Below are positions 3,051 through 24,861 of a stretch of 24,861 nucleotides of DNA, piece by piece. The DNA comes from a bacterium (GTDB lineage: Bacteria; Arandabacterota; Arandabacteria; Arandabacterales; JALGWA01), in contig JASFEA010000030.1 of assembly GCA_050125095.1 (NCBI GenBank), positions 1 through 24,861 on the forward strand. The letters are read 5' to 3'. A program made the translations under genes and the position numbers. Numbering within the stretch: position 1 is the stretch's first letter; every line of letters begins with the position of its first letter. The notes beneath the pieces are model-generated. The model was not told the origin of the DNA and ran no database searches. It saw nothing but the letters and a program-made list of their open reading frames with translations.

Positions 3051-4552
3051 TTCTTTTTCCTCTTCAATACCTCTCTCAAGACCTCGCGTTCCTCCTTGAG
3101 GCCCAGACCATAGAGCATCAAGATGTAAAGCGCTGCGAAAGCTATACACAGGCCGACGGTATTGAAGATGCCCGTCCACTGGAAGTGCCTGTTGAGAAAG
3201 TAGAATACGGCCGATGTCACGGCGCCCGCCGCCGCGGGCTTGGCGAGGTCGTATCTGAAAGGCGTGAAGCCGTAGAGTATCTTCACCTCGACGACTCGCA
3301 GTATGTTCGTTGACGCGATCGAAAGCGTGGTCGCGAGGGCCGCCCCGTTCATGCCGTATTTCGGTATGAATATCAAATTGAGGGCGACATTGGAGCTGGC
3401 TAGACAGATTGAGTTGACCAGGTTGAGCTTCTGGCGTCCCGTCATTGTGAGTATGAATCCGATGGGGCCCACAACGGCGTTCACTATCTGGCCGATCGCG
3501 AGTATCACAAGCGCCGTAGCTCCCTTCGGGAAGTCGTTCCCGAATATGCTCAGAATCCCCGGCGCAAAGAGCAGGTACACGCAGAATACCGGCAGACTGA
3601 GCGTGAAGATCCACTTGGAGACTGACTTGAAATGCGTCATGAGCTCAAGACGGTTGCCCGTCTCCCAGAGCTCGGAAATTATGGGCGCGAATATCTTGCT
3701 GAACGACATAAGGCTGATGGAAACGAACGGCGAGAGCACCAGCGTTGCGCTCAATATACCCACAGTCTCCGAGTCAAGGTAGTAGCCCGATATCATTACA
3801 TTGGACCGGGAGATGAGGACGTTCATGAAATTGGCGAGCACAAGCGGCAGCGAGTAGAAGAAGAGCTCGTTGGCGACTCCTTTGCTGCGGGTCTTCCGGA
3901 AGTCGAATGGGGATACCTTGACGGCGTAAATTAATGCTATGACTGCTGCCACGGCGATCGCCCCCACTCCGCCCAGCACGACCGCGAAGAGCCTAAGGCC
4001 CGCGAGGAACAGGAGAAGTATGAGCACGAGCCGCGCGACGGGCCGCGCGATCATCTCGACGATCACACTCGGCTTGAGCGTCTTGAATCCCTGTGTGTAA
4101 CCGTTGAACACAAGTATCATGGTGAAGAACGGGAGCCCGATGATGTATACCCTGAGCGCCAGGTCGAGGCCGGTCACCTGGGAATAGAACCTGCGGGCCA
4201 CAGAAGGGGCGACCAGAGCCGTGATCCCTACCAGGGCGATCGAGAGGATGCTTGTCAGGACCACGCCGGAAACCAGCGTGCCCTTTACGCGAGCCGTGTC
4301 GCCCAGAGCCATGTATTTGGAAGTGAGGCGCACGACGCCGCGGTTCATTCCGAATATCGCCAGTATGCACAGCACCTGGAAGATGCTGCTCGCCAGCGAG
4401 TAAGTGCCGAAGAGCTCGGGCCCGATGGTTCGGGTGATGATGATGCTCGCGACGAAGGAAAAGACGATGTTGAAAGCCTGGCCGAAGACGTCCAGGCCCG
4501 CGTTCTTTATGATGAGACCGAATTCGGATTGGCTGCCCTTGTCCACGCTCAC
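3047..4552 (-). CDS. Wzx-type polysaccharide flippase (MOP superfamily)
   Basis: About 14 hydrophobic segments, with IITRTIGPELFGTYSLA and NVALNLIFIPKYGMNGAALAT. Lies between a glycosyltransferase and a phosphodiesterase with overlapping start/stop codons. Confidence 0.85.
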   Translation of the reverse strand: MSVDKGSQSEFGLIIKNAGLDVFGQAFNIVFSFVASIIITRTIGPELFGTYSLASSIFQVLCILAIFGMNRGVVRLTSKYMALGDTARVKGTLVSGVVLTSILSIALVGITALVAPSVARRFYSQVTGLDLALRVYIIGLPFFTMILVFNGYTQGFKTLKPSVIVEMIARPVARLVLILLLFLAGLRLFAVVLGGVGAIAVAAVIALIYAVKVSPFDFRKTRSKGVANELFFYSLPLVLANFMNVLISRSNVMISGYYLDSETVGILSATLVLSPFVSISLMSFSKIFAPIISELWETGNRLELMTHFKSVSKWIFTLSLPVFCVYLLFAPGILSIFGNDFPKGATALVILAIGQIVNAVVGPIGFILTMTGRQKLNLVNSICLASSNVALNLIFIPKYGMNGAALATTLSIASTNILRVVEVKILYGFTPFRYDLAKPAAAGAVTSAVFYFLNRHFQWTGIFNTVGLCIAFAALYILMLYGLGLKEEREVLREVLKRKKK

Positions 4553-5667
4553 CCCTTCAGAAGGTCTTCGTAAACCCTCTCGGTGCGGCTGACCATGACG
4601 TCGAGTCCGAGATTGCCCAGGAAGAACTCGCGACCCTTCCTGCCCATTTCCACGCGCGTCTTCTCATCCCCCGCGAGCGCGAGCATCTTGGCAGCAAGGT
4701 CGTTGGCATTGCCGGGAGTCGCCAAAAGCCCGGTCACGCCCGTCCTCACCAGCTCCCTGTTGCCGCCCATCGCAGTCGCAACGACGGGTTTGGCCAGTCC
4801 CATATATTCGCAAATGCTGTTCGAGAGGCCCTCGCTGTAGTCTCCATGCGAGGCCAGGACTCCGATGTCAAAGTGCCTTGCGATGTCAAGGACATCCTTG
4901 CGGTGGCCCATGAAGATGGTGCGCGATGCTATGCCGAGCTGCCTGGCCAGCGCCTCGTAGTCTCCCCGCCGGTCGCCCTCGCCCAGGATGACCGCGTGGG
5001 CGTCGTCGTATTTCTCGAACACCTGGGCGAGCGCCGCGAGGAAAGTGGGATAGTCCTTGAGGTATGTGAGATTGGCTACATGGCCTATGAGGAGCCCCTT
5101 CTCGGGCAGTCCCAGTTCGGCTCTCGGCCTGGTCGGCGCCGGGTCGAAGTCAGCGATGTTGTAGCCGTTGTATATTACCCTGGTCTTCTCGCGCCCGGGC
5201 CAGTGCTTGAAATAGTGCTCCACGCCGGCGTGGGAGTTCGCGATTATCAGATCGGAGATGAGGAAGCCGATTCTCTCGCTCGAGTCGGCCACGCGCCGGC
5301 GGGGGCCGGCGATCCTGATGGTCGTTATTGCCTTCCTCCCGGCCAGTTTCGCCGCAACGGCGCCGTAGAAGCCGGGCAGCCCCAGGTACGGATGTACGAT
5401 GGCGATGTCTTCGCGCTTTATGTAACCGTAGAGCCGGGTAATGACTCCGAGGTCCCATCTCCACTTCCTGGGAGCTACAGTGAGCGGCAAGCCGATCTCC
5501 ACAGCGGCGCGTCCGACAGGGCCGCCGGGTTCGAGACATACGAGATGAGGCGTGAAACGGTCGCGGCTCAGGCCCTTTAGGAGCTCGATGAGCTGCCGCT
5601 CGGCCCCGCCGAGTATGCCGGTATCATGGGAAACGTACAGAATGTTTGACTTCGGTAGTTCGGCCAT
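4549..5667 (-). CDS. Glycosyltransferase family 4 (GT-B)
   Basis: GGAERQ near the N-terminus, VIYNG, K-D-Y, EGLSNSICEYM (E-x7-E) and PVVAT..GG..E. Confidence 0.9.
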   Translation of the reverse strand: MAELPKSNILYVSHDTGILGGAERQLIELLKGLSRDRFTPHLVCLEPGGPVGRAAVEIGLPLTVAPRKWRWDLGVITRLYGYIKREDIAIVHPYLGLPGFYGAVAAKLAGRKAITTIRIAGPRRRVADSSERIGFLISDLIIANSHAGVEHYFKHWPGREKTRVIYNGYNIADFDPAPTRPRAELGLPEKGLLIGHVANLTYLKDYPTFLAALAQVFEKYDDAHAVILGEGDRRGDYEALARQLGIASRTIFMGHRKDVLDIARHFDIGVLASHGDYSEGLSNSICEYMGLAKPVVATAMGGNRELVRTGVTGLLATPGNANDLAAKMLALAGDEKTRVEMGRKGREFFLGNLGLDVMVSRTERVYEDLLKG

Positions 5668-20455: not shown

Positions 20456-21655
20456 ATGGACCAGGCAGCAATCGACAAGGGCAAGAAGCATTTTGGGGAC
20501 CTGATCAAGAGCCAGATGGAACGCGTGGAGATAATGAAGAAGGGCGAGGACTTCACAGACTACTCCAAGCTCAAGCCCATCATTATCGGCGTGCTTGGCG
20601 GGGACGGCATCGGGCCCTTCATAGCCGCGGAGGCGCAGCGGGTTTTGGAGGCCCTGCTGGCTGACGAGATCAAGGACGGCAGGGTCGAGTTCCGTGTGCT
20701 CGAGGGGCTCACCATTGAGAAGAGGGCCGAGGTCGGCAAAGCCGTCCCCGATGATGTGCTCGAAGAGATAAAGAAATGCCACGTCACTCTCAAGGGACCC
20801 ACCACGACACCCAGGAAGGGTGATCCCTGGCCCAATATCGAGAGCGCAAACGTCGCCCTGAGAAGATATCTCGACCTTTTCGCCAACGTGCGGCCCGTGA
20901 GGGTTCCGTCACAGGGAATCGACTGGATGTTCTTCCGTGAGAACACCGAGGGCGCCTATGTGCTCGGAAGTTGCGGCATAGATGTCACCGACGACATCGC
21001 CTTCGATTTCAAGGTTATCACCACGCAGGGTGCCGAGAGGATCATCCGGCTCGCCTTCGAGCATGCCAAGAAGGCCGGCAGGAAGCGGGTCACCATCGTC
21101 ACCAAGGCCAATGTCGTCAAGACCACCGACGGCAAGTTCCTAAGGATCGGCTACGAGATCGCCAAGGAGTATCCGGGCATCGAGTGCGATGACTGGTACA
21201 TCGATATCATGACGGCGAAGCTCGTCGACGAGAAGAGAAGGCGTGATTTCCAGGTCCTGGTGCTCCCAAATCTCTACGGCGACATCCTCACCGACGAGGC
21301 GGCCGAGTTCCAGGGCGGAGTGGGAACGGCCGGCAGCGCAAACATCGGCAAGAAGTACGCCATGTTCGAGGCCATACACGGGTCGGCTCCCAGGATGGTG
21401 AAGGAGGGCCGCGCCCAGCACGCCGATCCCTCCAGCATGATCCGCGCCGGGGCGATGATGCTGAACCACATAGGCTTCCCCGAGACGGGCAAGAAGCTCG
21501 AGATGGCTCTCGACATCTGCGGCCAGTACGAGAAGAAGGTAGTCATGACCGGCCGCCCGGGCGGAGGCACGGCGGAGGAGCTGGGCAACTACCTCCTCGA
21601 TACGATCAACGATCCCAAGATCGAGGAGAAGTGGAAAGGATACGTCGGACTGTAA
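20456..21655 (+). CDS. Isocitrate/isopropylmalate dehydrogenase family; most like isocitrate or homoisocitrate dehydrogenase
   Basis: GDGIGP, KGP.TTP, S-A-N-VALRR.LDL..NVRP, RENTEG.Y, KAN, PNLYGDILTD and FEAIHGSAP. ATG 20456 follows GGAGG. Confidence 0.88.
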   Translation: MDQAAIDKGKKHFGDLIKSQMERVEIMKKGEDFTDYSKLKPIIIGVLGGDGIGPFIAAEAQRVLEALLADEIKDGRVEFRVLEGLTIEKRAEVGKAVPDDVLEEIKKCHVTLKGPTTTPRKGDPWPNIESANVALRRYLDLFANVRPVRVPSQGIDWMFFRENTEGAYVLGSCGIDVTDDIAFDFKVITTQGAERIIRLAFEHAKKAGRKRVTIVTKANVVKTTDGKFLRIGYEIAKEYPGIECDDWYIDIMTAKLVDEKRRRDFQVLVLPNLYGDILTDEAAEFQGGVGTAGSANIGKKYAMFEAIHGSAPRMVKEGRAQHADPSSMIRAGAMMLNHIGFPETGKKLEMALDICGQYEKKVVMTGRPGGGTAEELGNYLLDTINDPKIEEKWKGYVGL

Positions 21656-23463
21656 TGATCCGTCTTGCAATCATAGCCGGGGCAATCACTCTGTTAGTTG
21701 CCCCGGCTCTTCTTCATTGCGCCGTTCCATCCGACCTGCAGTGCTACCTCGTACAGATGCATATCCACGCGCACACAAACCACAACGGCACCGACCTGCC
21801 TGCATCCATGGAATGGCACTGCGCCTATGCCCGGGAGTACGGATTCGATGTCGTGTGGTGGTCGGATCATGCGGAGGTGTTCGATACCTACCAGGACATG
21901 AGGATCTCATTCGGGCGGGCAATGATCAGCGATGACCGGAGGAGCATAAACCTGGGGATCACCGGAGGCCGCCGGCCGCTGTCTATGCTCGCCATAGACG
22001 CCACGAGGGACGGTTTTGATCTGGGAATCGAAGGGGCGCGGTTGAATGTCGGGCTCACTTCGCGGGGCAGCGGCGAGTTCGATACGGTGAGGCTCACGCC
22101 GGCCTCCAGAAGGGGGCCTGTCAAGACGGTGAGATTCTGCCGCCCGGTCACAAGCGGGCTGAGGTTCGTGGCAGTCATGGACTTCTCCGGGCCGCCGGAT
22201 GATTCGTTTTTGCGCTTCGGTTTCGACCTGGCCGCGCATCCTGAAGGACGCCATCATCTACTGTTCGATATAGTGCGCAGGCCCGGCGCCGGACCGAGGG
22301 TCATCGGAGATACGCTTGTTGTGGATGAAATGCTCGTGGAGGATTTCCCCGCAAGGCTCAGCTTCGATCTTGAGAGAACGGCGTCTCATCTGCCCGATGG
22401 CTATGATAACACCCTTGGCTCGGTCTATATTGAGTTTGGAGCCAGAAACGGAGCCACGGTCGAGGTGGCAATCGACAGCCTGATAGTGATAAGCGACCGG
22501 CCCGACGGAAGTAACCAGTACCGCGTCATAACTCAGCTGGCCGACCGGTATGAATCCCGATACGGCATTGCGCAGTACGTCGGCGTTGAGGCCAGCGGCA
22601 TGCACACACCGGAGTGCCCCCACATGAACGCCTTTTTCCCCGAGAGTACCGAGACTCTTGAAAACCTCGTCGTCGATCCTCGTTTGACGAGGGCGGAGTG
22701 GGCGAGGGGCGTCGAGAGGCGGGGTGGACTCGTGTCGCTTAACCACCCGTTCGGCGCAGCTCTGAACCCGGTGGGAAGGGGCCTCTACGAGGTAGATGCA
22801 AAAACTCCGCTTCGGGAGCTGTCCGCCAGAGCCGGGCCGATTCCCGAAGAAGACCTTTGGGCTGTGGCAGCTCCCATAATTGAGAGTGATGGAATGGGCT
22901 GCCGAATTATGGAAGTGGGATACCTCTTCCGTGGAAGCGGGACGCTTGCCGATCACCTGAAGCTCTGGGACCTGGTCCTGGCAAATGGCGTGAGGCTCGT
23001 GGGAAATGGTGTGTCCGACGCGCATGGCGGGATCTGGGGACCCGACATGAGACCTAATCCATTTGCGACCTGGATATGGGCCGAAGACAAAGACCGGGAC
23101 TCGTTGCTGGAGGCGCTTCGGGCCGGCAGGGTGTTCTTCGGCAATCCGTTTCTTTACCAGGGCGAGTTCATGTTCGGCGTGAATGATGTCCTCATGGGTG
23201 ATACGCTTTATGTCAGAGGGGGAGAGGAGGCGCGCGGGTGGGTGCGCCTGGAGACGCGGGTAGATGATCTGGAGATGCGGCTTGTGCACGTGAAGCTCGG
23301 CGCCGGAAGGGAGGCTCGCTATATCAGTCGGGATACGCTCGTGGACCCCGAGGGCGGCTTTTCGCTTGTTGTGAACGAGGCCGGTTTTGCGAGGATAGAG
23401 GTCTATGGACACGGCGGAGAGCCTGTCATCTTCAGCAATCCCGTGTGGCTGATCCCCCGGTAG
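21655..23463 (+). CDS. Secreted PHP-like (CehA/McbA-type) metallohydrolase
   Basis: Signal peptide, then MHIHAH, WSDH, GVE, PHMN, NHP, GVSDAH and C-terminal FSNPVW. Start overlaps the upstream stop (TAATG). Confidence 0.7.
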   Translation: MIRLAIIAGAITLLVAPALLHCAVPSDLQCYLVQMHIHAHTNHNGTDLPASMEWHCAYAREYGFDVVWWSDHAEVFDTYQDMRISFGRAMISDDRRSINLGITGGRRPLSMLAIDATRDGFDLGIEGARLNVGLTSRGSGEFDTVRLTPASRRGPVKTVRFCRPVTSGLRFVAVMDFSGPPDDSFLRFGFDLAAHPEGRHHLLFDIVRRPGAGPRVIGDTLVVDEMLVEDFPARLSFDLERTASHLPDGYDNTLGSVYIEFGARNGATVEVAIDSLIVISDRPDGSNQYRVITQLADRYESRYGIAQYVGVEASGMHTPECPHMNAFFPESTETLENLVVDPRLTRAEWARGVERRGGLVSLNHPFGAALNPVGRGLYEVDAKTPLRELSARAGPIPEEDLWAVAAPIIESDGMGCRIMEVGYLFRGSGTLADHLKLWDLVLANGVRLVGNGVSDAHGGIWGPDMRPNPFATWIWAEDKDRDSLLEALRAGRVFFGNPFLYQGEFMFGVNDVLMGDTLYVRGGEEARGWVRLETRVDDLEMRLVHVKLGAGREARYISRDTLVDPEGGFSLVVNEAGFARIEVYGHGGEPVIFSNPVWLIPR

Positions 23464-23510
23464 CCGCGTGAATATGAGTGGTAGTCGGACGGTTTGATTG
23501 GAGGTTCGCA

Positions 23511-23858
23511 ATGCTGATAATCGGCGTGATCATAGGCGCACTGGCTATGGTGGTGCTGGGGGAGCTGCCCATACTCGGCCCCCTCCTGGCAGGGTTCCTG
23601 GCCGGGGTGATCGCCGGAGGCGCGAGGCGCGGCGCCCTTGCCGGGTTCCTCAGCGGAACCATCGGAAGCATACTGGCCATGGCCGTGCTGACCGGGCTGG
23701 GCGCCTTCTTCGGCGGCCTATTCGCGGGCATACTGGGCGCCGGGGCGGGAGCGTTCATGGGCGCAATCGTAGGCATGGGCTTCTTCATCGTGAGCCTGTA
23801 CCTCGGGATACTCGGCCTCATAGGCGGCGCCATTGGCGGAGCTCTCAGGAAGCCTTAA
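23511..23858 (+). CDS. Small Gly-rich membrane protein (DUF5518-like)
   Basis: ATG follows GGAGG. LP.LGPLLAGFLAG...GG..RGALAGFLSG..G and GLIGGAIG; about 4 TM segments. Confidence 0.7.
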   Translation: MLIIGVIIGALAMVVLGELPILGPLLAGFLAGVIAGGARRGALAGFLSGTIGSILAMAVLTGLGAFFGGLFAGILGAGAGAFMGAIVGMGFFIVSLYLGILGLIGGAIGGALRKP

Positions 23859-23863
23859 GGGTA

Positions 23864-23892
23864 TTGACCTGTCGGGCCTTCTGTGCTAAAAT
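23864..23892 (+). promoter_or_regulatory. Sigma70 promoter for the Trp leader
   Basis: TTGACC-17 nt-TAAAAT with an extended TG (TGCTAAAAT). The predicted TSS at about 23898-23901 falls at the leader start codon. Confidence 0.75.
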
Positions 23893-23900
23893 TAGTGGTG

Positions 23901-23948
23901 ATGAAAGACCTGATACACATAATGAGCTGGTGGCGCACCTGGACGTAG
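23901..23948 (+). CDS. trpL: Tryptophan attenuator leader peptide MKDLIHIMSWWRTWT
   Basis: ATG AAA GAC CTG ATA CAC ATA ATG AGC TGG TGG CGC ACC TGG ACG TAG. It has three Trp codons, including the WWRT motif seen in E. coli TrpL. Confidence 0.85.
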   Translation: MKDLIHIMSWWRTWT

Positions 23949-24007
23949 GTGCGCCCGTCACTGCGTAACAGTTAATTGGCGGGACGCCAAGGCGTTTCCC
24001 GCCTTTT
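23932..24007 (+). promoter_or_regulatory. Ribosome-dependent transcription attenuator (1:2 pause, 2:3 antiterminator, 3:4 terminator)
   Basis: 1:2 is GGCGCACCT/AGGTGCGCC (23932-23955). 2:3 is GCGCCCGTCA (23951-23960) with TGGCGGGACGC (23977-23987). 3:4 is GGCGGGACGCC-AA-GGCGTTTCCCGCC plus TTTT (23978-24007). Confidence 0.8.
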
Positions 24008-24016
24008 CCATATTCA

Positions 24017-24050
24017 GGGGTCGCGGAAATGCCGCGACCCCCTTTCTGTT
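24017..24050 (+). terminator. Second terminator-like hairpin in the leader
   Basis: GGGGTCGCGG-AAATG-CCGCGACCCC (10-bp stem) followed by CTTTCTGTT. Confidence 0.65.
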
Positions 24051-24073
24051 GCGCCCGGGGAGGTGCATTTCAA

Positions 24074-24861
24074 TTGGAGAGGAACAAAACAGGCGAGAAG
24101 AGCCTGAAGCAGTTTGCGACAGCCATGCGGGCATCGGGCATGAATCCCGAGCGGCTCCATCTGCACGTCGGGCAGCTTCCGGAGGTGAAGGTGGTGCGCA
24201 TAGACTCGCTGGAATTCCACGAGAAGCCGGACAGCCAGCGATTTCACTATCTCAAGCGCCGCATAAGCCTGGACGGCTTTCTTCGCAATCCGCCGATAGC
24301 TGCGAGGGACGGGAAGAACGGCTCGCGCGTTCTTATAGACGGCGTCAACCGGATCGAGGCCCTGAGGCAGCTGGGCGTGCCTCACGTCCTCGTGCAGGAG
24401 GTTGACTTCGCCGACGGGGATCTCACGCTTTCAACCTGGCATCATATCGTCGAGGGTTACGAGCCCGCGGAGCTCATGTCCGAGATCTCAAGGTCGGCGG
24501 AGGTCATCGCATGCGCGCCCGCGTTCACCCCGGAGGGCGATTACGTGCCGCAGTTCTTCGAGCGCGGCGCCTGCACGGTGGTTCTGCCGGACCGCCGCTG
24601 CTATGTGGTGTGTTCAACCAGGACGCTCGACAGGCGCCTGGAGGTCATTAGCCATGTCGTCGACGTCCTCAGGTCGGGGACGACGAGGGACCGCGTCTCC
24701 TATACCAGTATGCCCGACCTGTCGCGCAACTACTCCAACCTGTCGGCGCTGGTGTGCTACAGGGGATACTCGAAGGCGGAGGTGCTCGAGTCCGCCGCGA
24801 GGGGCAGGCGCTTCCCGAGCGGGGTCACGCGTTTCAGCGTTCCCAAGAGGGCTTTGTCGCT
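24074..24861 (+). CDS. ParB/Srx-fold SbnI/SerK-like free L-serine kinase; 3'-partial
   Basis: Not in the ORF track because it has no stop inside the window. TTG start follows GGAGGTG. Translation includes VVRIDSLEFHEK, DGFLRNPPI, VLIDGVNRIEALRQLG..VLVQEV, LSTWHH and FPSGVTRFSVPKRAL. These are collinear with recalled SbnI motifs (HE, IRHP, IDGVHR, VQE, STWQH, PAGVTRF..R.L). Confidence 0.75.
   Translation, partial: MERNKTGEKSLKQFATAMRASGMNPERLHLHVGQLPEVKVVRIDSLEFHEKPDSQRFHYLKRRISLDGFLRNPPIAARDGKNGSRVLIDGVNRIEALRQLGVPHVLVQEVDFADGDLTLSTWHHIVEGYEPAELMSEISRSAEVIACAPAFTPEGDYVPQFFERGACTVVLPDRRCYVVCSTRTLDRRLEVISHVVDVLRSGTTRDRVSYTSMPDLSRNYSNLSALVCYRGYSKAEVLESAARGRRFPSGVTRFSVPKRALS

Follow-up and report, generated by a model that had tools for sequence, protein, structure and literature searches.

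This analysis concerns the 3' end of a window of 24,861 nucleotides (nt), i.e., the whole stretch of DNA that was analysed, from a bacterium of the order Arandabacterales (assembly GCA_050125095.1, contig JASFEA010000030.1). Located there, all on the forward strand, are a promoter, a short leader open reading frame (ORF) with tandem Trp codons, a series of RNA hairpins with alternative pairings, and the first part of a gene whose predicted product belongs to the fold family of SbnI and SerK, referred to here as the kinase-like gene. It is directly followed by trpB2 on a second contig of the same genome.

The promoter is of the sigma-70 type with a TG extension (23864-23892; −35 hexamer TTGACC at 23864-23869, a 17-nt spacer, and −10 hexamer TAAAAT at 23887-23892) and agrees with the consensus at 10 of 12 positions. 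Two promoter-like sites were observed in 1 kb, compared with 0.3 ± 0.6 in shuffled sequences. The ORF list gives a frame of 21 codons, starting with GTG at 23883 and ending at 23948. As the −10 hexamer sits inside this frame, the usable start is the in-frame ATG at 23901, which leaves a leader peptide of 15 codons, MKDLIHIMSWWRTWT (23901-23948, stop codon TAG at 23946-23948). Its Trp codons lie at 23928-23930 and 23931-23933, forming a tandem UGG, and at 23940-23942. The distance between the end of the −10 hexamer and the leader ATG is 7-9 nt in 11 of 12 leaders, and TG directly precedes the hexamer in 10 of those 11. This comparison covers the first 12 of 17 leaders, and in the twelfth, L017, another hexamer was picked. 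Since such a gap leaves no room for a Shine-Dalgarno sequence, the leader mRNA appears to be leaderless or nearly so, and the peptide is probably read from it in this form, with the transcription start placed by the spacing rather than by mapping.

Downstream of the tandem Trp codons, the RNA is highly structured. The region 23880-24060 folds with −81.8 kcal/mol, compared with −60.06 ± 4.11 kcal/mol for shuffled sequences (z −5.29), and none of 200 shuffles was as stable. Hairpin A (23932-23955, 9 pairs, −19.5 kcal/mol) is formed by segments 1 and 2, GGCGCACCUG and UAGGUGCGCC. Its 5' arm consists of the codons right after the tandem UGG (23928-23933; segment 1 begins at 23932), and its 3' arm opens with the stop codon. 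Hairpin B, formed by segments 3 and 4, is an intrinsic terminator (23978-24014, −18.5 kcal/mol) with a stem at 23978-24003 and a U-rich tail at 24004-24014; the sequence directly 3' of the hairpin reads TTTTCCATATT. Segments 2 and 3 can pair with each other instead (23951-23987), with 23951-23960 opposite 23977-23987, and this antiterminator uses the whole 5' arm of hairpin B. Further downstream, the terminator-like hairpin C (24017-24051) combines a stem of 10 base pairs (24017-24041) with the U-rich tail CTTTCTGTTG. A long-range helix P of 9 base pairs (23963-24054) joins GCGUAACAG (23963-23971) to CUGUUGCGC (24046-24054) and encloses hairpins B and C. The original prediction, made from the sequence alone, had named a promoter, a WWRTW leader peptide and mutually exclusive hairpins. 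All of these elements were confirmed where it had placed them, with corrections: the leader starts at ATG 23901 instead of the GTG 23883 of the ORF list, and there are three hairpins (A, B and C), not two.

The kinase-like gene (24074-24861) likely starts at TTG 24074-24076, 8 nt after the Shine-Dalgarno sequence GGGGAGGTG (24057-24065; whole initiation site 24057-24076). At the corresponding place in the genomes G002 and G001, GGGAGGTG precedes the start. A small hairpin over the Shine-Dalgarno sequence (24050-24067) was considered and dropped, as by eye it is not kept in L077 and L079. The window encodes residues 1-262 of 308 of this putative free ʟ-serine kinase of the SbnI/SerK family, and the remainder is encoded on contig C89 (L003 3-266). 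The 262 residues score 60.5 bits with the NCBIfam model of SbnI and 29.8 bits with that of SerK, both end to end. The full-length protein of the L080 strain (308 amino acids) reaches 90.7 bits with SbnI (model positions 7-249 of 254) and 34.8 bits with SerK. No Pfam domain, ParB-type domains included, was found in the ORF; the placement of the protein comes from NCBIfam, sequences of the Protein Data Bank (PDB) and a fold search. In the PDB sequence search, SbnI entries match the window ORF at 4.8e-12 to 5.1e-9, and the family profile gives 6.8e-32 for SbnI and 1.1e-11 for SerK.

An alignment of 53 family members from the retrieved loci served as the basis for a structure prediction of the L080 protein. 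The resulting AlphaFold model has a mean pLDDT of 88.2 and a pTM of 0.81. When it was compared with the PDB using Foldseek, the top nine matches were all SbnI (5uje, 6nr6, 5ujd) or SerK and its Pyrococcus homolog (1vk1, 5x0k, 5x0e, 5x0g, 5x0j, 5x0b), with E-values of 3.6e-17 to 6.9e-14, TM-scores by target of 0.75-0.81 and 243-274 aligned columns. The next match, a ParB/Noc N-domain, has an E-value of 3.5e-4 and covers 82 columns. Glu50 of the HE motif (codon 24221-24223) aligns with SbnI Glu20 and SerK Glu30, as the family-profile alignment places the motif on H19-E20 of SbnI and H29-E30 of SerK. PDB titles show that the solved SerK complexes E30A and E30Q carry their mutation at this Glu30. 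Asp89 of the DGxNR motif (IDGVNR; codon 24338-24340) aligns with the Asp of IDGVHR in SbnI and of VDGHHR in SerK. Neither E50 nor D89 varies among the 53 aligned members. In SbnI, E20 and D58 have catalytic roles, D58 being the Asp of the nucleotide-site motif DG(V/H)HR. The protein thus belongs to the SbnI/SerK fold family, is kinase-like by prediction, and represents a separate branch that is orthologous to neither SbnI nor SerK. None of the 83 relatives in the protein collection has a precomputed Pfam domain, and all of them either lack a name or go by 'hypothetical protein'.

The window is one of the 268 contigs of its genome (C30), and the kinase-like ORF runs off its end. Contig C89 opens with the same 127 nt and contains the last 87 codons of the gene, a 99-nt spacer and then a trpB2 of 454 codons (L003 366-1730). 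Because a contig overlap alone is no proof of a join, the single metagenome contig L080 was used, which settles the connection of C30 and C89. Over the last 9000 nt of the window it runs colinear at 99.2% identity, and over the first 4809 nt of C89 at 99.06%; the stretch common to these alignments is the 127 nt that the contigs share. The downstream gene reaches 733.8 bits with the TrpB2 model NF009057 (cut-off 366) and 654.4 bits with TIGR01415 (cut-off 518.85), compared with 162.4 bits against a cut-off of 392.45 for the TrpB1 model TIGR00263. It matches the PDB chains 6hul_B (7e-133) and 4qys_B (2.2e-114). It carries the motif GLRYHG, where TrpB1 has GLDYPG. The original prediction had proposed SbnI/SerK motifs along the whole ORF with a catalytic Glu at 24221-24223, and had suggested looking for trpB2 or other trp genes beyond position 24861 and for Trp leaders and trpB2 linkage in homologous loci. 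The first two are borne out by the end-to-end matches in NCBIfam, PDB and Foldseek and by the alignment of the Glu, and the trpB2 was found directly downstream; the leaders and the linkage recur in relatives, metagenomes and Ignavibacteria, as described in the following.

Among 41 genomes (the own genome and 40 relatives), the kinase-like gene is present in seven, namely in all three of the genus of the window and in four of 13 of the sister family. With the alignment as query, it was likewise found in seven of the 16 genomes of the order. In all six relatives that carry it, trpB2 lies directly behind the gene, and a short ORF with tandem Trp codons lies upstream; such an ORF also precedes the gene in L017 and L021. 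A scan of species-representative genomes yielded 60 loci encoding a relative of the kinase-like protein, and in eight of them (L014-L021) trpB2 follows the match on the same strand at a distance of 15-173 nt. Seven of these eight loci are from the order of the window or near it, and the eighth (L021) is from a metagenome-assembled genome (MAG) of the Ignavibacteria. The record of L020 is titled Candidatus Eisenbacteria, and L017 is from a chromosome-level MAG. Of 285 genomes in the class to which the Ignavibacteria MAG belongs, 134 show some match, mostly weak and partial. Of the 30 best loci of this class, 20 score at least 265 bits, and 19 of these have trpB2 23-47 nt downstream; the remaining ten (189-206 bits) have it in no case. 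Leader peptides with WW or WWW precede the gene in five of the 20 high-scoring loci (L110, L122, L124, L125, L126), and in the others no leader and no Rfam family was found.

Three of the Ignavibacteria loci without a WW leader (L111, L112, L118; similar in L121) share a motif GTGCGGGGCTGA...TTCCGATACCTA upstream of the kinase-like gene, which in L118 reads GTACGGGG. No Rfam family matches this motif. It possibly represents a different type of regulatory RNA that controls these two genes.

Tandem WW is kept in 16 of 16 distinct leaders, which were aligned to build a covariance model. In the model-fitted alignment, 93.1% of the pair cells hold standard pairs, compared with 90.3 ± 0.4% in shuffled alignments, and none of 500 shuffles reached the observed value. 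When the partners are slid by 1-3 columns, paired cells drop to 45.5-61.5%. Eight of 35 pairs are changed on both sides, a count reached by two of 500 shuffles. Helix A is paired in 100% of cells across the 16 leaders, with no variation in seven of its nine pairs, which is to be expected because its sequence encodes W-R-T as well. Two covarying pairs are seen in helix B; on reading of the alignment, five rows of the genus of the window are off by one column in this helix. In helix C, five of ten pairs covary with changes on both sides. As the alignment leans to the fitted structure and the sequences are related, this covariation is to be taken as consistency rather than proof. Helix P occurs only in the genus of the window, where it is part of the minimum-free-energy structure of the window, G002 and G001, with one compensatory change from A-U to G-C in G001. 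Its 5' strand GCGUAACAG lies in the loop of the 2:3 helix, and its 3' strand CUGUUGCGC just after hairpin C.

In the own genome, the covariance model has a single match of 128.8 bits, followed by 17.1, 15.8 and 14.9 bits at E-values of at least 0.09, which indicates that the leader is a private control element of the operon. The leader is not a member of the Rfam family Trp_leader (RF00513), whose gathering score of 41 it misses with 15.3 bits (E 5.2). No Rfam family reached its gathering score in the leader of the window or in 17 Ignavibacteria loci. The Ignavibacteria locus L021 has a WW leader followed by a hairpin and U8, whose likeness to hairpin B was judged by eye only. It has no counterpart of hairpin C, and a search with the covariance model at E ≤ 0.01 misses it. 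A DNA pattern derived from conserved leader columns matched 14 metagenome stretches, comprising 11 leaders and three chance matches in coding DNA. All 11 leaders are followed by the kinase-like gene and eight also by trpB2; the other three contigs end inside the kinase-like gene. The pattern demanded conserved letters, and these leaders are therefore not an unbiased sample. Since leader, hairpins and gene order recur in the genomes of six relatives and on 11 metagenome contigs, chance is excluded as an explanation of the arrangement.

The effect of ribosome placement on the fold was modelled by masking 28 nt around the first UGG, or by placing the mask at the stop codon, with the RNA ending just before segment 4. 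All 16 leaders adopt the 2:3 helix as their minimum-free-energy structure when the Trp codons are masked. The helix is lost from every one of them once the mask sits at the stop codon, and segment 3 then folds into a weak local hairpin. Without a mask, hairpin A forms in 12 of 16 leaders. When segment 4 is included and the Trp codons are masked, the equilibrium fold switches to 2:3 in six of 17 leaders.

The genome of the window is 91% complete with 3.45% contamination. No match for trpA, for trpC (indole-3-glycerol phosphate synthase, IGPS) or for the Chorismate_bind domain of TrpE was obtained in it, the best trpD candidate scores 38.8 bits against a cut-off of 199, and the trpB search returned TrpB2 only, without trpB1. 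Each of the trp-gene searches was positive in 14 of 14 control genomes. In the order, trpA is present in one of 16 genomes, and both trpA and a Chorismate_bind gene are missing from G041, a relative with a chromosome-level assembly. The Ignavibacteria genome G042 has both, and there the kinase-trpB2 unit is an addition to a complete pathway. Searches for phosphoserine aminotransferase (serC_1, serC_3) exceeded the cut-off in none of the 16 genomes of the order (best 32 bits), although they were positive in 12 and 13 of the 14 control genomes, respectively. DUF1015, which the accessible text of PMC13759103 proposes as another serine kinase, was also found in none of the 16. A dedicated kinase fits this picture, as no other source of O-phosphoserine is visible. 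In addition, no true serB was found in the own genome, the best candidate scoring 30 bits against a cut-off of 144. A gene of the tryptophanase family is present in the own genome (G000 contig C4, L096 1246-2823; NF009709 498.2 bits against 285). Given that the genome seemingly has no trp pathway, the organism may both release and recapture indole.

Taken together, the leader and the two genes are probably best read as an indole-salvage operon induced by Trp starvation, in which a new branch of the SbnI/SerK family would supply O-phosphoserine to TrpB2. In this model, transcription would start 7-9 nt after the −10 box, at or beside the leader AUG, and the 15-codon leader would be read without a Shine-Dalgarno sequence. 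As long as charged tRNA-Trp is present, the ribosome would reach the stop codon and cover segment 2, so that segments 3 and 4 could form hairpin B, which together with the U tract would terminate transcription. When charged tRNA-Trp is scarce, the ribosome would stall at the tandem UGG and cover segment 1, allowing segment 2 to pair with segment 3; hairpin B would not form and the polymerase would read through. The first product, a free ʟ-serine kinase of the SbnI/SerK fold, would convert Ser and a nucleoside triphosphate (NTP) to O-phosphoserine. The second product, TrpB2, would condense O-phosphoserine with indole to give Trp. The unit would thereby constitute an NTP-driven indole-salvage route with its own O-phosphoserine supply. 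The sequence features, the fold, the gene order, the conservation and the alternative pairings are direct observations, and from them we infer the transcription start, the response to Trp, both enzyme activities and the source of indole. The original prediction had left the choice between Trp synthesis and indole salvage. Its interpretation is supported as far as sequence analysis goes, and the linkage to trpB2 stands; salvage is favoured over a biosynthetic branch because the genome appears to have no trpA, trpB1, trpC or trpE and trpA is found in only one of 16 genomes of the order.

Several observations weigh against this reading. At the RNA level, the 2:3 helix beats hairpin A even without a ribosome in four of 16 leaders (L009, L011, L017, L076), and with segment 4 included, hairpin B remains the minimum at equilibrium under the Trp-codon mask in 11 of 17. 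Duplex energies of eight leaders range from −13.4 to −20.0 kcal/mol for 2:3, compared with −18.5 to −29.3 kcal/mol for hairpin B. As hairpin B outcompetes 2:3 at equilibrium, the switch must be kinetic, with 2:3 formed before segment 4 exists. In the trp attenuator of E. coli, the terminator is likewise more stable than the antiterminator. A conserved, terminator-like hairpin C (−17.4 to −25.8 kcal/mol across leaders) would stop read-through transcripts as well, and no conserved strand competing with it was found; the best partners vary by leader (−9.8 to −15.3 kcal/mol). An antiterminator for hairpin C was therefore dropped, the candidate partners being leader-specific and weaker than C itself. 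Since efficient termination at C would block expression of the operon, C would have to be leaky or controlled by something else. Together with helix P, it could act as a second checkpoint or as a stabilising structure. At the level of genes, the 3 kb retrieved contain no trpB2 in 52 of the 60 homologous loci, which come from other phyla. The gene absences are not proof, as the genome is only 91% complete. The order also holds a second TrpB2 paralog (eight genomes, 580-590 bits, about 51% identical to the TrpB2 of the operon), which in five genomes is the sole TrpB2, without kinase-like gene and without serC. Apparently, a TrpB2 can do without a kinase gene. At the level of the protein, the scores are far below the NCBIfam equivalog cut-offs (SbnI 90.7 against 350 bits; SerK 34.8 against 380 bits), and the identity to solved SbnI and SerK members is only 18-27%. 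In view of these scores and identities, the substrate and the phosphate donor named here for the kinase-like protein are predictions.

The attenuator and the operon might thus be real while the SbnI/SerK-like protein does not feed TrpB2 as a serine kinase, acting instead as another small-molecule kinase, as a nucleotide-binding partner or activator of TrpB2 that replaces the missing TrpA, or as a regulator, SbnI being a transcription regulator as well. Such a function is considered unlikely. It would agree with the low scores and identities and with the five genomes of the order that have a TrpB2 paralog without any kinase gene. It would also agree with the NCBIfam name of SbnI, 'bifunctional transcriptional regulator/O-phospho-L-serine synthase', and with the accessible part of PMC12704722, in which the nucleotide bound by a SerK-like protein was CTP and not ATP. 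On the other hand, the catalytic Glu and the Asp of DGxNR are invariant in all 53 members, and the whole two-domain fold matches kinases, whereas ParB-type DNA binders match only about 80 residues. Moreover, neither serC nor DUF1015 offers another source of O-phosphoserine in the 16 genomes, and one distant homolog lies directly before a cysM-like gene (L063), echoing SbnI-SbnA and SerK-CysK. Even less probable, to a degree that makes it the most remote of the alternatives, is an enzyme that runs in reverse or serves general serine and phosphoserine metabolism, so that TrpB2 would be supplied with ʟ-serine and not with O-phosphoserine. A distant structural relative of SbnI, the DUF1015 protein 'SerBK', is proposed in the accessible text of PMC13759103 to replace phosphoserine phosphatase, and the own genome has no true serB (30 bits against 144). 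However, without serC, which was over the cut-off in none of 16 genomes, there would be no phosphoserine to dephosphorylate, the same text describes the reverse reaction as thermodynamically unfavourable, and the Trp-codon control links the gene to the supply of Trp.

The role of the leader has to be weighed as well. It is very unlikely that the WWRT codons are kept merely as RNA structure, with a protein, a ligand or Rho acting on B, C and P in place of Trp-dependent antitermination. This possibility would give a place to hairpin C and helix P, which are conserved yet lie outside the attenuation model. Helix A is nearly invariant, so that coding and structure cannot be separated there, and the Rfam Trp_leader score of 15.3 bits is well under 41. 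Nevertheless, leaders whose peptides otherwise differ have all retained the tandem Trp codons immediately ahead of segment 1, the two genes are preceded by WW or WWW peptides in five of 20 Ignavibacteria loci although the RNA is different there, and the folds with different ribosome positions behave as attenuation requires. The operon with its Trp-responsive attenuator and a serine kinase that feeds TrpB2 is retained as the preferred reading.

Compared with the classical trp leader attenuators of E. coli and of Corynebacterium and Streptomyces (PMC1262725), the leader shares a short ORF with tandem UGG, overlapping 1:2, 2:3 and 3:4 pairings, and, ahead of the first gene, a GC-rich terminator that is followed by a U tract. 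According to the accessible text of PMC1262725, strands of trp attenuators that are used in more than one pairing stay conserved across long distances, and the same holds for the multi-pairing strands here. Unlike the classical examples, the leader described here precedes kinase-trpB2 and not trpE, its ORF is seemingly leaderless, it has an extra conserved hairpin C and a helix P, and it remains below the threshold of RF00513. In mycobacteria, leaderless cysteine-rich short ORFs act as attenuators. The leader described here resembles them as a probable leaderless regulatory peptide sensing one amino acid, and differs from them in the amino acid, in the phylum, and in its clear intrinsic terminator and antiterminator.

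The gene pair has its closest parallel in SbnI-SbnA of the staphyloferrin B operon of Staphylococcus, in which a kinase-fold gene is likewise encoded with a PLP-dependent β-replacement enzyme. SbnA consumes the O-phosphoserine made by SbnI, and the corresponding activity is predicted here. The fold, the Glu of the HE motif and the Asp of DG..R are shared with SbnI. The differences are an identity of 22-27%, TrpB2 instead of SbnA as the partner, and control by Trp codons, not by iron or heme. SerK (TK0378), the ADP-dependent free serine kinase of Thermococcus kodakarensis, has the same two-domain fold and E30 aligned with the Glu, with an identity of 18-20%. As far as the accessible text of PMC5120207 goes, SerK supplies O-phosphoserine to a PLP enzyme for cysteine, and clear-cut SerK homologs are said to be absent from bacteria; the terms tryptophan and TrpB do not occur in it. 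TrpB2 enzymes use O-phospho-ʟ-serine, as stated in the accessible part of PMC11917138 with reference to Busch et al. 2014. Like the TrpB2 enzymes of known structure (4qys, 6hte, 6hul), the downstream gene is above both TrpB2 model cut-offs. Unlike described TrpB2 enzymes, it is preceded by a dedicated kinase gene, and its use of O-phosphoserine is a prediction. Neither the source of O-phosphoserine for TrpB2 nor a link between a free-serine kinase and TrpB2 was found in the searchable part of the literature, which is no proof of absence. Each part of the system is of a known kind; new are the combination, the attenuator on a probably leaderless mRNA, and the extra hairpin.

The preference of TrpB2 for O-phosphoserine has been reported since 2014, and the accessible part of the searchable literature leaves the purpose of TrpB2 and the source of this substrate open. 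A kinase gene fixed before trpB2 under a Trp-codon attenuator provides a concrete and cheaply testable answer. If correct, it would add a step that is missing from pathway-prediction tools, and the call 'tryptophan auxotroph' for these lineages would become 'indole-dependent'. Beyond staphylococci and hyperthermophilic archaea, the free-serine kinase family would include many uncultured bacteria, and a probable leaderless regulatory peptide with a classical terminator and antiterminator would be added outside the model phyla. A wider reading is attractive and at present rather doubtful. According to it, a whole order of uncultured bacteria would have abandoned the trp pathway and would live on two-enzyme, NTP-driven indole salvage, with the release of phosphate pulling in even trace indole. 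The module with its own leaderless WW-peptide attenuator would recur in several phyla, and its combination with the tryptophanase-family gene would amount to a switchable Trp/indole economy, while hairpin C and helix P would serve as a checkpoint for a signal other than tRNA-Trp.

Some features of the surrounding genes may be added. The second TrpB2 paralog (L102-L109; G003-G006, G008, G009, G011, G012) has neither a WW leader nor a kinase-like gene. By eye, its loci have their own promoter-like sites, and in L102-L104, the three loci whose downstream ORF was scanned, it is followed by an Fer4_5 iron-sulfur protein of 258-265 amino acids. The neighbours of kinase homologs without trpB2 are mostly unrelated genes, with a cysK/M-like gene within 3 kb in four of 63 loci. 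Distant homologs adjoin a cysM-like PLP gene in a few Chloroflexota-like and Sysuimicrobiota MAGs (L063, L058, L053, L049). In L063, this gene (3720-4763; TIGR01138 389 bits against 394) lies directly after the distant kinase homolog. The arrangement echoes the logic of SerK-CysK and SbnI-SbnA.

Between the kinase-like gene and trpB2, the spacer of 99 nt (L003 264-368) contains four copies of ATAGAGA, at 287, 300, 313 and 330, with a spacing of 13, 13 and 17 nt. Across the genome, with both strands counted, this heptamer has a frequency of 0.19 per kb. The 169-nt spacer of G001 lacks it, and the spacer of G002 has only 11 nt. Upstream of the promoter, on the same strand, lie an ORF encoding 610 amino acids (21631-23463) and a small ORF for a Gly-rich, very hydrophobic product (23510-23858), and the relative L007 has the same two upstream neighbours as the window.

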